NCBI GenBank assembly: GCA_963708075.1
Contig: OY970194.1
Coordinates: forward strand, 3,744,001 to 3,808,000
From: Sedimentisphaerales bacterium
GTDB taxonomy: Bacteria; Planctomycetota; Phycisphaerae; Sedimentisphaerales; Anaerobacaceae
Reading direction: 5' to 3'
Length of the DNA: 64,000 bases
The notes under the pieces are model-generated. The model did not search any database and was not told the DNA's origin. It saw nothing but the letters and a program-made list of their open reading frames with translations. The position numbers were made by a program, and so were the translations under genes. Shown here one piece after another: positions 59,143-64,000 of the stretch; within the stretch, counting starts at the first letter, position 1, and each line of letters begins with the position of its first letter.

Positions 59143-59173
59143 GTGGGCGGGCGGGTTTCAAACCCGCCCCTAC
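59143..59173 (-). repeat. REP-like family A whose GTAG supplies the rnr stop
   Basis: GTAGGGGCGGGTTTGAAACCCGCCC on the minus strand, with TAG at 59170-59172. Lies between convergent genes. Confidence 0.85.
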
Positions 59174-61360
59174 TGCCTGCGACGGTTTCGATGTCTTTGG
59201 GAGCGTTTTCGCTGGCCCTGTTGTGGCCGGGTCTGCTGAGGCAATCTCGCGATAAGATCGACGGCTGGAGCCAAGTCGAGTTGCCCCGCGGCGGGATAGA
59301 CATCGACGATCCGTACGCGCATGGTCTGCCCTAGCCGCAGGACCGCCCTCGTGTGGCGGCCGATGAGGCATTGACTTTGCTCGTCGAACTGCCAGTGATC
59401 CGGTCCCAGGGCCTCGCGTCGGATCAGCCCTTCCACGCCGTACTCGGGCAGGTACACGGCAGCCCCGAATCCGGTCAGGCTCACGACGACCCCGTCCAGC
59501 TCCTGCCCGGTAAACCCCTTCAATAGATGAAGGACGAGAATCGTCTTGAGTTCCTGCACGGCGTCTTCCGCGGCCTGCTCGGTTTCCGAAATGTGCTCTC
59601 CGATATTCGCGAGTTCCGCGAAGGAATATTGGCGACGAGCGTAGTCCACTCTGCCGGTCAGATATCCGTGGAGCACGCGATGCACGATGAGGTCCGCGTA
59701 GCGACGAATGGGACTTGTGAAGTGGCAGTACTTGCGTGCGGCCAGGGCGTAGTGGCCGACACTCTCAGGGCCGTAGACCGCCCTCTCCAAGCTGCGCAGG
59801 ACAAGAATGTTCACGGGTAATGCCGCCCGGGTATTGCGGACCTGGTCCAGCAGTTTCTGTAAATCGCCGCGCTGAGGTTGGCGAGAGAGCGTCATTCCCA
59901 GCAGCCGAAGGGTCTGCGAGAGCCGGCGAAAGGCGGCGGAATCAGGCTCGGGGTGGATACGCCGTATGAAAGGGATGCAGTAGCGGTCGAGCAGAGTCGC
60001 CACCGCGACATTGGCCTCAACCATGAACATCTCGATGATCGTATGCGGATAGCAGGTGTCTTCGGGCTGGACGCCGATCACCTGCCCCGAACCATCCATC
60101 ACGACTTCACCGGCGAACGTCTGCAATTGCAGCATGCCCGCCCGGCGTCGGCGATCCTCGATCCGGCGGGCCAGTTCGTCCATACCGTGCAACAGGGTCA
60201 CGACATCCGCTGACAGGCCGCAGGGGTCGCCCTTCAACACGCGGTCGGCCTGCTGGTATGTCAGACGAGCCTGGGACTTCATCATCGTATTGGCAAAGCG
60301 GGTGGCCTGGACACGGCCGTCTTTGTCGTAGGTCAGGTACACGCTCTTGGTGTATCGCGGCTGGCCCGGCTGAAGGGAACAAACGCCGTTGCTCAGCATC
60401 TCCGGAAGCATCGGCAGCGTCCTGCCAGGCAGATAGACGCTGTTGCCGCGTTGGCGGGCGCAGCGGTCCAGGGCGGAACTGGCCGGGACGAAATGGCTGA
60501 CATCCGCGATGTGAACCCCAAGGACCGACCGCCCCTGCTCATCGGTGGTAAGGCTGATGGCATCGTCAAAGTCTTTGGCGTCCGGCGGGTCAATCGTAAT
60601 GATCAGGGCGCCGGTGATGTCCTCGCGGCCGCGAGTGTCCCGGGGATCGAAATTCTCCCTCGCGTTGCTGGCCTCGACCAGGCTGCTCGGATCGAAGTCC
60701 TCCTGCAAGCCGTGGCGTTGGATGATCGCGGAGATTTCCGTATCGAACCGGCCCGGCCTGCCAAGGACTTCCGTAATCACCCCGCGCCGGCTGGGAACGA
60801 GTCGGATAGGTGCGAATCCTCACCGCCACCTTATCCCCATGGCGGACCCTTCGGATATCGATGCTTTCCACCTCGACCGGCCGGAAGAAATCCCCGCCGT
60901 CCGGCTGGACTACCCACAAGCTCTGCTCCTGCCGCAGCGTGCCGACCACGGTCGTATGGGCCCGCTCCAGGACCCGGACGATTTCCCCGGTGAGCCGGTC
61001 CTGGTCCTTCTTTCGCGTGATCCTCGCGACGACGCGGTCCCCCGTCATCGCATTGCCGGTGGCGTTGGCAGGGATGAACACGTCATCGTCCATGCTGTCC
61101 TGCTGGGGCGTGATGAACCCGTACCCGCGGGCATTGGCCCGGAAGGTGCCTGTGATCTCGTTGGAGATCTCCGGCAGTTTGACGAGATTGCCCGCCCCGA
61201 CGATCACGCTGCCCTCCGCGCAGAGTGAGTCCAGCGCCTCGCGAAAGGCGGCCCTCAGCTCGCCGCGAATGCCCAGTTCCTGTTCCAGGTGAACGAGCTT
61301 GCGGGGCGAACTATCCTTCTGCAGCAGATGCAGAATATGGCTCTTCAAAACCTCGTGCAT
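59170..61360 (-). CDS. rnr: Ribonuclease R / RNB family 3'-5' exoribonuclease (frameshift near 60783)
   Basis: Cold-shock domain GTFRANARGYGFI..AMTGDRV, TIDPPDAKDFDDA, GVHIADVSH, IEMFM..AN, YCHFTSPIRRYADL and a C-terminal S1 domain. One G is missing in a G run at the junction. Confidence 0.93.
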
Positions 61361-61553
61361 CGACGCATCATATCATCCGGCGTAACCCGCCGTAAGGTCC
61401 AAACCCAGTCGTGCCGCCAACAGCCAGCCGAGCCAAATTGGCTTTGTTTCGCACACAGGTCCTCAGCGACTTCGTGTGCCCGGCAGGGCAAATTGGCTTT
61501 GTTTTGCGCGATCGGCCCCGGTCGTGGTGACGCCGCGACGCGTTTCCTTCAAG

Positions 61554-61572
61554 GCCCTTACGGGCACACTAC
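61554..61572 (-). repeat. GTAG REP-like family C inside the array
   Basis: GCCCTTACGGGCACACTAC, identical to 7981-7999. Confidence 0.7.
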
Positions 61573-61795
61573 AGACAGGTCCGCCGGCATATTTGGCTTT
61601 GTTTTTCGCACAGGCATAATCCGCGTTTTTCGCATAACTCTTTTGCCTACCGGGAATTACCTTCCATTGGGCCCTCCGCCAATTGGCTTTGTTTCGCGCA
61701 ATCATCCCTGCTTGCCGGCCGACAGCCCCCGGAATTTGGCTTTGTTTCACACAGTACGCCGGGCAAATTGACTTTGTTTGTGCGACCCGGCCCCT

Positions 61796-61824
61796 GTAGG
61801 GGCGGGTTTCAAACCCGCCCTCAC
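61796..61824 (+). repeat. REP-like family A inside the array
   Basis: GTAGGGGCGGGTTTCAAACCCGCCCTCAC. Confidence 0.85.
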
Positions 61825-62033
61825 GCTTGCCGGCACATCACGAACCCGCCGGGCAAATTGGCTTTGTTTAGCGCGGCAGGCACGGAGGAATTGGGTTTGT
61901 TTCGCAGGATCACTTGTGTCGGGGCTCATGGACCTCTTGGCATTATGTAAATCGGCGAGGATGGACGATTCACCGGTCATGGACAGGCTCTCCGAATGGA
62001 CTATGTCGCTATCCGCTATTCCGTTGTGTCCCT

Positions 62034-62062
62034 ATCATACATATGCACGCATTTTCTGTCAA
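62034..62062 (-). promoter_or_regulatory. Near-consensus sigma70 promoter reading into the repeat array
   Basis: TTGACA-17 nt-TATGAT, 11/12 consensus matches. Confidence 0.7.
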
Positions 62063-62088
62063 CTGAAATCCCGCCGATAGCCACGTTT

Positions 62089-63622
62089 GTGTGCGACTAC
62101 ATTTCGTGGGGTCAGGCGGGTATCTTGCGTTGGATGTCCCAGTAGTTATGCCATAGATGGCTGGAACGCACTGACGCCAGGGCCATCATGGCCTCAGCAT
62201 TGGGTTTGTCCCAGCGCATCCCTGGGCCTTTGAGCCGGACCGTCAACGTCTTGCAGAAGGCCTCTGTCGGGCCCGAGCCGATCTCATAGCCGGCCGCTTT
62301 GAATTGTGGATACTGCGTCATCTCCTGGCGGACATCAATGAACTTGATCAACTGCTCCAGGGCTTTGCGTTTGTCGGCGGCTCGAAGCGTCTTACGCAGG
62401 GCTTGGATCTGCTCCAGGGCCTGCTCGGGGCCTTGCTCTAAGAAGCAGCCACAGATCTGCTCACGCCAATGCTGGCTTTGCACACTGCCTTGGCCATAGA
62501 CGCTTTGACTGGCCTTGATCACGTTGTCCCGCAGGTGATAGTAATCCAGGATGTTGGCCTTGAGCATCGGCAATTGGAGGTGGTATTGCTTGCGAATCCA
62601 CTCGGCCCCGTCGCTCACCGAGTAGGCCAGAGCGGCTTGATCCAGCTTGAGTTGGCCGGCGTGCTGACGCATCAACTGGCCCAGCGTCTGGGCATTGCCG
62701 CTGGTGCCGATGGCATATTGGTGCTGTTTCGAGGGATCGTAGAACGCCACGATCTTGAACTCCTTGTACGGCAGATCACTGCCGGGATGCATCGGCCGAC
62801 GCTTGGGCTGGCCCTTACGGCGACGGGCCCGTCGCTTGCGGCGTTTCTCTTTCTCCACCTGGGTGACCAAGGGCACCTTAACCCCATCGGCTCCGGTGAT
62901 GATGCAGGTGGATTTGTTCGGTCCGGACCGGCAGTCCTCGGCCGCCCAGTCGGGGCCCAGAGCCCCCGAACGCTGCTGCGTCAGGACTTGCCGGCCCTCA
63001 CCCTCGACAAGGCCGCGGACCGTCTCATGGCTGATGTGCAATTGACCGACGTAGGCCAGATTCTCGGCGGCGGTGCGAAAGTCACTGCCGACCGCCGCCC
63101 GGCAGCATAACTGGCGAACCCCCACGCTGTAGCGACTGTGGCTCATGCCCAGCCATTGATCCACCGGGGTGATGGAGCCCTTGCCGCGATTCCAATAGAC
63201 CCGGCGGCGGATCTGAACAGGACCATTGACCGTCAGATACTCAATCGAACGGCAGCCTTTACTCTCGTACCTGGGGCCGTCGTCGCTGGGCATCGGGGGA
63301 AAAAGCCGCCTCACTGTGCTGCTGGCGTAATTGAAGGGCTCTCTCATAGAGACGCTGGCGAAACAACGCACTGGCCTGGCGAACGAGTTCTTCGCTATCG
63401 GCAATGATGCGTCCGGCCTGGGCCTGATTGACGGCCTTGACCACGTCCTCGATCAAGGTATCGACCTCTCCCCTCATCGCCTTTTTCAACTGTGAGGCAG
63501 TGAGCTTCTCGTGCATGAGTACTTCCTTGCTGTATGACTGAATGACTGAATAATTCCATTCTCATCATACGCTGTCCAACTGCCCACAGGCCATACGATC
63601 CCCACGAAAATTAGTCGCACAC
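62089..63622 (-). mobile_element. Complete insertion sequence, ISKra4 (Mutator-like) family, 1534 bp
   Basis: TIRs GTGTGCGACTACATTTCGTGGGG (62089-62111) and the reverse complement of 63600-63622 match at 21/23. The 8-bp direct repeat CCACGTTT flanks it at 62081-62088 and 63623-63630. Confidence 0.92.
62112..63516 (-). CDS. ISKra4-family DDE transposase in two overlapping ORFs (63259-63516 and 62112-~63300)
   Basis: TGADG, SDGAEWI, ILDYYH, IGSGPTEAFCK and RLKGPGMRW. The frames overlap at TTTTTCCCCC (63295-63304). Confidence 0.88.
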
Positions 63623-64000
63623 CCACGTTTCTTCCGGGCCCCTAAATCCTTACCAGGCATGGATATACGCAGGAGTGACACGCCTTTCCCGCGATTCCCC
63701 TGAAGGATGGTTCCGGCCCGTCGGGCCGGGAGTCTTGCGCGTTGGGGCCACCAGCCTGATTCACTCCCCCTCCCGCCTGTGCGAGAGGGTGGCCCACGGG
63801 CGGCGTATGCCCATCCATGCTGGAGGCCCGAATGCGAGAAACTCCCAAGCGCGATCCTTCGCGTTTGGCCCCAACCCCTCGATGTGCTGTTGCCCGTTCC
63901 TGGTCCCGCAACGGGCATTGCCGCCAGGGTTATGCCCCGGACCCCGAGATTTATCGCACCGGGCGCAAAACATGAAGGACTCAATATCAGGCTGTTGCCG

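Follow-up and report, generated by a model that had tools for sequence, protein, structure and literature searches.

Background

The intergenic mosaic elements of neisseriae (NIMEs) are arrays in which 20-bp dRS3 repeats, each of them the dyad ATTCCC-N8-GGGAAT, separate RS elements; they are reported as specific to Neisseria (PMC1797815). In a different kind of system, the CcaF1-CcsR1-4 ('cuckoo' RNA) locus of Alphaproteobacteria, a small protein binds RNA and affects the repeat RNAs with which it is co-transcribed (PMC8034643). Here we describe an array of a short, asymmetric motif lying upstream of rnr in a 64,000-nt stretch of DNA (hereafter, the window) from a Sedimentisphaerales bacterium (contig OY970194.1, positions 3,744,001 to 3,808,000). 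In kind, it is an intergenic mosaic repeat array. To judge from its alignment with complete copies elsewhere, it is very probably the decayed, gene-less orphan of a multicopy element that joins a gene to the array. The closest described system by architecture is the NIME array and by logic the cuckoo-RNA locus, and both fail on defining features.

The likeness to the NIMEs is that of long intergenic arrays built from one short conserved repeat and variable fillers of tens to ~200 bp, in which other repeats and insertion sequences (ISs) land, whose length and copy number vary by genome and which ordinary genes adjoin (PMC1797815). The differences are several. The motif studied here is asymmetric and strictly one-directional within the genome, whereas dRS3 is an inverted repeat; NIME fillers are repeat-bounded families, whereas of the 234 fillers here only 15 recur as whole units, 110 are without a match and the others have just embedded repeats in common. 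Furthermore, the arrays described here descend from the tail of a specific gene, many of them keeping its promoter, and the gene-motif pair spans several phyla.

Like CcaF1-CcsR, the complete element places a small gene of a very large, long-unexplained family ahead of several repeats with one short motif, its loci duplicate, and copies of the repeat are only weakly linked to the gene (PMC8034643). The CcsR transcripts in that account, however, are hairpin small RNAs with a CCUCCUCCC loop motif, whereas no conserved hairpin is predicted here and Rfam returns no match; the protein, of ~175 aa, is unrelated and has no DUF1127 match, and at this locus both transcription and RNA binding are putative, reasoned from the DNA.

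CsrB and RsmZ sponge RNAs carry many GGA sites in hairpin loops, have CsrA as their partner and occupy one to three loci. The array would resemble them as a promoter-driven non-coding RNA in which many irregular copies of a short single-stranded motif titrate a protein; it differs in its 19-nt motif, its putative partner, its ~40 loci and the lack of an Rfam match. Centromere repeats, such as sopC behind sopB or parS behind parB, are regular tandem units on a dependent replicon with a ParA partner. They share with the complete element a gene directly followed by an array of presumed sites for its product, but here the spacing is irregular, the 43 arrays are chromosomal and no ParA-type gene was seen. 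Finally, putative mobile promoters are called to mind by a promoter-leader unit that recurs before unrelated genes in 11 copies, 10 of them co-oriented, although here the promoter is accompanied by the motif array and a gene stump.

Results and discussion

Eight copies of a directional motif behind a promoter and a gene stump

The motif AAACAAAGCCAATTT occurs eight times in the array region (Table 1), with 0-2 mismatches and always on the minus strand, and nowhere else in the window; 0.71 copies were expected by chance and none of 100 shuffles reached eight. A sequence-only reading of the locus, made beforehand without database searches, had described eight same-strand repeats, and the pattern scan reproduces both these and their start-to-start spacings of 55, 100, 90, 53, 32, 90 and 33 nt. 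The conserved unit runs ~4 nt 5' of the 15-nt core (TGCG). The spacers are largely unique, as that reading had also noted, five of the seven fillers being without a second copy in the genome. The remaining two hold dispersed repeats and account for the two embedded repetitive extragenic palindromic (REP) sequences it had listed: the hairpin in filler 2 (61780-61854) is also present in fillers of five other arrays, while the repeat in filler 6 (61505-61589) is found at 13 places outside arrays and in one other array. On the sense strand, filler composition is G 0.38 versus C 0.29. At the level of strains the array is stable, contigs of a related population (95-99% alike) being collinear with it over 61186-62042. 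Array 'joints' seen in DNA contigs from four runs were considered as structural variants and rejected; the contigs belong to other arrays that share the motif. A covariance-model scan of the region against Rfam gave only a chance snoRNA match (E 0.2), outside the array, and the same scan of eight related loci gave only two tRNAs. The doubt expressed beforehand that a known class would account for the array has proved justified, in that no Rfam or Pfam family covers it.

The promoter that the sequence-only reading saw pointing into the array (TTGACA-17-TATGAT) agrees with consensus at 11 of 12 positions. It belongs to a conserved promoter-leader unit, a profile of which (nhmmer) matches here at E 1.8e-13 and also at 10 other arrays. 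In these 11 arrays, the present one (61435-62062) included, the unit is made up of GGATTTCAC, TTGACA, 17 nt of variable spacer, TGTATGAT and a leader, ACAACTGAATAGAGAAT, and always stands 73-306 nt upstream of the first motif copy. The 11 orphan arrays have diverged: the -35, -10 and leader are kept, whereas the -35/-10 spacer and the fillers are not. In other genomes, 4 of 80 related loci carry this unit immediately upstream of a full-length gene.

Between promoter and array, GGAGAG ends 7 nt before the ATG (61980) of a 77-aa open reading frame (ORF) that has no Pfam match, and a second ORF of 95 aa (61463-61750) overlaps the array; the ORF list thus bears out the ribosome-binding site (RBS) and the two frames picked out beforehand. 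At three loci (L037, L039 and L115), full-length genes can be aligned at their 5' ends with the stretch here that runs from promoter and leader through RBS and ATG to the first codons. Residues invariant in the gene family are already gone within the ~24 codons of the stump; the sequence then jumps to the first motif copy, the 77-aa frame running on by chance to 61747. Because the window aligns with full genes through these ~24 codons and then jumps to the motif, the RBS and 77-aa ORF are best read as the remnant of a true gene start followed by chance read-through. No intact family gene was found in the window by tblastn with the 173-aa N-terminal domain of the family (P0001).

A genome-wide family of arrays

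The window lies in a single 7.5-Mb contig of 60% G+C. This genome holds 216 copies of the motif at ≤1 mismatch (0 for a reversed-pattern control) and 291 at ≤2 mismatches (3 for the reversed control). The 291 copies form 57 clusters, comprising 14 singletons and 43 arrays of 2-13 copies, and the array at rnr is accordingly not the one-off without homologues that had been envisaged as an outcome fatal to its significance. All 43 arrays are one-directional, each on a single strand, with spacings of 32-375 nt. The logo shows a conserved core of ~19 nt, TGCGAAACAAAGCCAATTT, with which the eight copies at 61435-61906 agree, and unconstrained flanks that are G-rich on the motif strand genome-wide. 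Within 0-1 mismatch of the 15-mer are 205 of the 291 copies, a set that had itself been selected at ≤2 mismatches. The 234 spacings fall 99/63/72 by remainder modulo 3, or 73/63/72 once 26 spacings of 87 nt are left aside; genome-wide the spacings hold no reading frame, and the suggestion that the repeat is conserved as nucleotides, not as peptide, is upheld. Close spacing (30-38 nt) recurs 19 times among the 234, and these doublets have no fixed conserved inner core.

Of the 234 fillers, 103 match sequence outside arrays (81 of these at ≥5 places), 108 match another array and 110 match nothing. Cassette-like swapping of motif-bounded units was rejected, since whole motif-to-motif units are shared by only 15 of 234 fillers and the neighbours of these are also similar in 23 of 34 cases; the pattern indicates, at the level of sequence comparison, that sharing between arrays comes from embedded repeats of REP or miniature inverted-repeat transposable element (MITE) type and from block duplication of whole elements, not from unit shuffling. 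A candidate conserved element at distal array ends was also rejected, being restricted to recent gene-bearing paralogues. As a separate observation, a 37-42-nt repeat lies inside 87-nt array units and at ~30 places outside arrays.

A co-oriented next gene follows 30 of the 38 arrays with ≥3 copies (binomial p = 0.0005) and 10 of the 11 promoter-type arrays, by the counts of our own simple and crude gene finder. The downstream genes are functionally unrelated, and include those for serine hydroxymethyltransferase (SHMT), a PurF-type amidotransferase, elongation factor G (EF-G), BipA, RecQ, a penicillin-binding protein, FliD and an extracytoplasmic function sigma factor, among others. The papers searched gave no match for the 13-nt motif and nothing relevant on interspersed intergenic or CRISPR-like sequences of Planctomycetes. 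No curated protein or RNA family covers gene or motif, and the element is undescribed.

The linked gene and its protein family

ORFs upstream of several arrays form one family, and tblastn with P0001 finds nine copies of the gene in the genome. In all nine an array lies 56-256 nt downstream on the same strand; 34 arrays are without the gene. A gene family that tracks the array, which the sequence-only reading had proposed to look for, is thereby found, a family of ~175 aa present in these nine copies and in related loci. Where the copy is GC-rich, the array does not interrupt the open frame, and among homologues the motif is read in each of the three frames in the predicted tails (AKQSQF/S, CETKPI and RNKANF). 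Where the genome is AT-richer, the ORF has already ended before the first motif copy, 13-85 nt past the domain. Because three frames are used in the tails and because the ORF of AT-richer genomes ends before the motif, the array is not coding; conservation as a real protein in a single frame, the other outcome held to be fatal, was not what we found, no frame being kept. Programs that find CRISPRs or call ORFs will probably be misled by the arrays, and predicted proteins of the family carry long, false read-through tails.

The family is large. A word-indexed search returned 624 relatives, all hypothetical, the named ones coming from Sedimentisphaerales, Phycisphaerales and other Planctomycetota, while an exhaustive search at E ≤ 0.001 returned 23,063 representative clusters, 6,051 of which also pass E ≤ 1e-10. 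Among the 150 matches listed, the domain begins within the first few residues in nearly all. P0001 matches nothing in Pfam, PHROGs or NCBIfam at E ≤ 1, and a profile built from its alignment matches nothing among PDB sequences. When 44 members were scanned singly, no consistent family emerged: any one PHROGs family (unnamed) was matched by at most two of them, and a single member matches Pfam RepB (E 8e-4).

The N-terminal 45 residues are the most conserved, with invariant N10, N13, S17-T18-G19-P20, K26, N32 and H36. An AlphaFold model (mean predicted local distance difference test score 81.6) shows a confident helical hairpin or bundle over residues 50-172, preceded by a basic two-helix region, the N-terminal 45 residues, at low confidence. 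Foldseek found nothing in PDB or BFVD at E ≤ 0.001, a wide VIA-align search returned only generic long-helix or helical-hairpin matches, and the ESM Atlas only unnamed clusters.

The gene-motif link in other genomes

A scan of 185,579 species genomes gave at least 582 loci encoding the family, the best 80 of which were kept; 70 of these 80 were tabulated, 10 short matches being left out. The best 80 come from Planctomycetota, Acidobacteriota, Alphaproteobacteria, Ignavibacteriales, a deltaproteobacterium, Actinomycetota and Verrucomicrobiae. At ≤2 mismatches and within 1.5 kb, the motif lies downstream of the gene in 60 of 70 loci versus upstream in 3; with a looser 12-nt pattern, sense copies are downstream in 64 loci and the motif is upstream of the gene in 2. 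Among the related loci, AAACAAACCCAAT and AAACGAASCCAAT occur as variants of the motif. In alphaproteobacterial loci a single copy, TTTGCAAAACGAAGCCAATTCCG, follows the domain at a distance of ~170-200 nt, and acidobacterial homologues are likewise followed by a single copy. The link between gene and motif is both old and wide, extending over several phyla.

Under the looser pattern, 13 of the 70 loci have one antisense copy. Ten of the 13 form one Sedimentisphaerales/Phycisphaerae subfamily, in which the antisense copy is followed 130-280 nt later by a sense copy, and three distant loci have an antisense copy only. The inverted pair (L042, L049, L056, L060, L064, L067, L070, L071, L076 and L077) lies 100-500 nt past the gene and brackets palindromic repeats of the GTTTCAAGT/ACTTGAAAC type; the bracketed segment could be invertible or form a hairpin.

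Two further observations concern the related loci. In AT-richer Planctomycetota (L047:3105-3231, L054:3275-3401, L066:3103-3229 and 12 similar loci), motif copies 1 and 2 stand ~90 nt apart and the filler between them is itself conserved (..AAATGCCCAAATGAACGTAA..ACAAAGGATTATGAAAA..), with an RBS-like AAGGA and then an ATG; a second small ORF in this filler was considered and rejected for want of a conserved reading frame. In two loci (L047:3579-3650 and L048:3469-3540) the array is followed, 150-270 nt on, by a tRNA-Thr(CGT) gene of the same strand, an arrangement that is not general.

A transcribed multi-site RNA as the favoured reading

Our favoured reading, held tentatively and with a probability of roughly 0.45, is that the array acts at the RNA level as a multi-site RNA bound by the protein of the element. 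The complete element is made up of the promoter, the ~175-aa gene and, immediately after the gene, copies of TGCGAAACAAAGCCAATTT with unconstrained fillers between them. In the decayed copy at rnr, REP-type repeats of the host have landed in two fillers and an IS just upstream. The sigma-70-type promoter would yield a purine-rich, poorly folded RNA that exposes eight motif copies and reads on into rnr, and these copies would be bound by protein made from the nine intact genes elsewhere, the contact being made by its invariant basic N-terminus. Orphan arrays could serve either to decoy the protein or as leaders through which the genes behind respond to it.

We favour action as RNA because promoter elements and motif copies have been kept together in 11 diverged orphans in which the rest has drifted, and because every array in the genome is in the sense orientation to its gene or promoter, the fillers are strand-asymmetric and the spacing is irregular. 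The co-orientation of the next predicted gene behind most arrays counts in favour of transcription too. Predicted accessibility points the same way, in that the sense RNA is predicted to leave the 13-nt core unpaired much more often than its other windows: the median probability that it is fully unpaired is 0.028, versus 0.0001 for other windows (in antisense RNA, 0.002 versus 0.0004). The CcaF1-CcsR locus also provides a precedent for a gene co-transcribed with RNAs of a repeated motif.

Several observations weigh against this reading. The antisense copies in 13 of 70 related loci suit a site in duplex DNA and not a single-stranded RNA motif. The modelled protein, with a basic N-terminus and a long helical hairpin, would have the layout of a DNA binder, and this layout is commoner among DNA binders. 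RNA of the leader and array is predicted to fold no better than shuffles (z = -0.45), and the accessibility of the motif is low in absolute terms and arises partly from base composition alone. Moreover, co-orientation, the count of which depends on our own simple gene finder, and promoter retention could both reflect selection on expression of the host gene, unrelated to the motif.

Were action as RNA to hold, a family as large as many named Pfam families would gain its first handle, namely a defined motif in nucleic acid, accompanying it from Planctomycetota to Alphaproteobacteria, Acidobacteriota and Actinomycetota, and its function could be tested with a 19-nt oligonucleotide. A broader proposal, compatible with a protein acting on either RNA or DNA of the array, is that the family and its near-invariant 14-19-nt motif form a class of selfish single-gene elements that sheds promoter-bearing, gene-less arrays before host genes (rnr, glyA, purF, EF-G, bipA), whereby the protein gains control of dozens of them. 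We consider this possible, though doubtful; if true, some forty promoter-plus-array units spread before housekeeping genes in this genus would amount to a large, lineage-specific rewiring of expression by a repeat.

A DNA docking array and a selfish mosaic

The sequence-only reading had left three options, and two of them survive: a transcribed multi-site RNA, as above, and a DNA array that loads protein. In the latter, the motif copies would be duplex-DNA sites on which the family protein is loaded as an oligomer, in the manner of a centromere, an iteron set or a packaging site, and orphan arrays would be extra loading sites or roadblocks between promoter and host gene. This account, which we hold to be rather unlikely, draws on the same antisense copies and on the same protein model. 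It would also fit the placement of the gene directly ahead of its sites in all nine copies here, the near-invariance across phyla of both the motif and the protein N-terminus, and the recurrence of the 30-38-nt spacing. Set against it are spacings that range irregularly from 32 to 375 nt without helical phasing, inner sequences of the close doublets that are not conserved, and a motif that is asymmetric and lacks a dyad. Nor is the motif an operator of the gene's own promoter, being upstream of the gene in only 2 of 70 loci. Docking on DNA leaves unexplained both the joint retention of promoter and array in the 11 diverged orphans and the strand-asymmetric composition of the fillers.

Alternatively, the arrays could be a selfish mosaic resembling NIMEs or bacterial interspersed mosaic elements (BIMEs), with no sequence-specific job at this locus: harmless upstream of genes, growing by slippage or unequal crossing-over, and collecting REP and MITE repeats. 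The distribution of the arrays would suit such a mosaic. The exact 14-mer is nearly absent from 150 sampled genomes of the phylum, six of which have 1-4 copies, whereas within the genus (24 genomes) its copy number runs from 0, in eight genomes, up to 305. The motif is absent upstream of rnr in all eight congeners (~2.7-3 kb of upstream sequence obtained). Upstream of glyA, bipA and purF in five array-rich congeners, an array is present at 1 of the 11 sites with 1.5 kb of upstream sequence, a twelfth having been left out of the count with only 122 nt. Overall, 1 of 19 orthologous sites shares an array. Synteny at rnr in the eight congeners allows no pre-insertion sequence to be defined, homology ending at the rnr start.

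The single shared site is worth a description of its own. Upstream of bipA, one congener (G176) has a four-copy array (L164:430-720) with periods of 87, 87 and 92 nt, and the present genome (G000) has a bipA array too. The two have no filler in common and share only the 131-nt bipA promoter-leader region; they may represent either one old array with complete turnover of fillers or two independent insertions.

The functional disparity of the downstream genes, the dispersed repeats in 103 of 234 fillers and the NIME-like architecture (PMC1797815) would likewise suit a selfish mosaic. We nonetheless regard a mosaic without a specific job as improbable. The motif is near-invariant (205 of 291 copies at 0-1 mismatch, in the set chosen at ≤2) while fillers and stump have diverged beyond recognition, the same motif lies behind the gene in distant phyla, and promoter elements are selectively kept; together, these features speak for purifying selection on motif and promoter.

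Weaker explanations

A mimic of phage packaging, in which the gene would be a relative of the small terminase and the arrays pac- or cos-like sites that hijack or block packaging, is highly improbable: only the general layout speaks for it (a region at the N-terminus that binds nucleic acid, a helical part for oligomerisation and sites next to the gene), while no PHROGs family is shared, any one unnamed family being matched by at most two of 44 members, and no phage genes were seen beside this array or beside other arrays with annotated neighbours. A small-terminase fold was not recovered by Foldseek against PDB and BFVD at E ≤ 0.001 or by matches to PHROGs or Pfam, the N-terminal 45 residues being modelled at low confidence.

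The third option of the sequence-only reading, an att-like site with arm repeats around a tyrosine-recombinase core, can scarcely be correct. Direct repeats do lie on both sides of a central stretch, but the proposed 25-bp dyad (61635-61659) is complementary at only 5 of 9 positions, which is chance level: the 681-nt region contains 36 equally good 9-7-9 pseudo-dyads versus 32.3 ± 5.0 in shuffles, and a repeat search of the region did not recover it. Of the two companions expected to co-occur with the arrays, the promoter unit recurs at 11 of them, whereas the spacer containing the supposed dyad has no further copy in the genome. No integrase gene lies in the flanks, the sole recombinase-type gene nearby being that of an unrelated IS with its own ends and 8-bp duplication, and a tRNA gene is near only 2 of 43 arrays in the genome and 3 of 60 related loci.

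Equally implausible are a genuine protein built of KQSQF repeats and an array of CRISPR-like guides: the 77- and 95-aa ORFs cover parts of the array and the frame is open through it in GC-rich copies, but the frame is not kept, as described above, and for CRISPR, which had been discounted from the outset, the ~19-nt repeat is short (~23-50 nt would be usual), the periods are irregular (32-100 nt here and 32-375 nt genome-wide) and no ORF in the array flanks has a cas-family Pfam match. Other classes were considered and rejected: REP/BIME arrays (the motif is not palindromic, the arrays keep to one strand without alternating, and genuine REP hairpins are only passengers); an integron cassette array (no intI, a motif that is not an inverted repeat, and 17-85-nt fillers without genes); a type III toxin-antitoxin locus of ToxI type (fillers unrelated and unequal, with the array downstream of the gene in complete copies); and a partition centromere of sopC/parS type (irregular spacing, with a ParB/RepB match in only 1 of 44 members).

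Neighbourhood of the array

Table 1. Features of the array locus, in window positions except for the additional IS copies, which are placed in the genome
Feature	Position	Strand	Evidence
Eight-copy motif array with seven fillers of 17-85 nt	61435..61906	-	
Motif copy starts	61435, 61490, 61590, 61680, 61733, 61765, 61855, 61888	-	pattern scan
15-nt cores	61888-61902, 61855-61869, 61765-61779, 61733-61747, 61680-61694, 61590-61604, 61490-61504, 61435-61449	-	
Filler 2 with REP-type hairpin GGGGCGGGTTTGAAACCCGCCC, arms 61787-61809 / 61811-61833	61780..61854	-	81 genome hits; inverted-repeat search
Filler 6 with second dispersed repeat	61505..61589	-	22 genome hits
Gene stump: RBS GGAGAG 61993-61988, ATG 61980, ~24 degenerate codons MTGESSILADLHNAKRSMSPDTSD	61909..61993	-	alignment to full genes
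Conserved promoter-leader unit: GGATTTCAG, -35, 17-nt spacer, -10, leader ACAACGGAATAGCGGATAG	62010..62077	-	nhmmer profile
-35 TTGACA	62062-62057	-	
-10 TATGAT	62039-62034	-	
rnr (RNase R), co-oriented; start 75 nt beyond the last motif copy	59170..61360	-	Pfam RNB, S1, OB_RNB, CSD2
Insertion sequence, 1534 bp (62089-63622), with transposase ORF 62112-63404	62081..63630 (including duplication)	-	Pfam UPF0236
Other copies of the insertion sequence	861342, 1109144, 2879577, 3059152, 6916346		

A Pfam scan identifies the neighbours of the array as rnr, a PIG-L family gene and the IS transposase. The IS has inverted ends and an 8-bp target duplication, CCACGTTT, at 62081-62088 and 63623-63630. 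Lying ~4 nt upstream of the promoter unit, it is context and does not belong to the element. The genome contains six copies (five at 100% identity and one at 99%), each with an 8-bp target duplication, and one contig spans exactly 62089-63622 at ~4x the flanking depth. The IS is apparently active. Three of the six copies adjoin array elements: besides the one here, a copy lies 33 nt beyond the final motif copy of array 862909 and another abuts sequence that resembles the -35 part of the promoter unit. The IS may have a target preference for array elements.

No terminator-like site was found on the minus strand between the array and rnr. Terminator-like hairpins formed from antisense motif were considered and rejected: five were found versus 1.2 in shuffles, and their stems of 5-6 pairs with G-T are too weak. 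Orthologues of rnr are present in the congeners, in one frame of 735-841 aa, whereas here the gene is split (60590-60790) into ORFs of 256 and 536 aa. Because two extra bases (CG) follow 60782 in short-read contigs from two runs, the frameshift is probably an assembly error and not the mark of a pseudogene.

Gene-bearing copies of the element end in a sequence of ~30 nt (CGAATCCGCCACCG..GCCG.CCGCACC), as at L009:1850-1890 (G000 ~942150-942190), which is found at ~55 other places and is common to at least two other families of dispersed repeats, as if it were one terminal signal. It resembles a tRNA T-arm, and no tRNA gene matches it. A linkage of the arrays to tRNA genes was rejected, this tRNA-like end being the common end of another dispersed repeat of ~55 copies. 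In addition, a repeat of ~100 bp flanks the array of a complete element on both sides (L009:1185-1285 and 1920-2015; G000 941486-941582 and 942220-942315) and recurs, in both orientations, at over 100 sites of the genome; it is probably a MITE.

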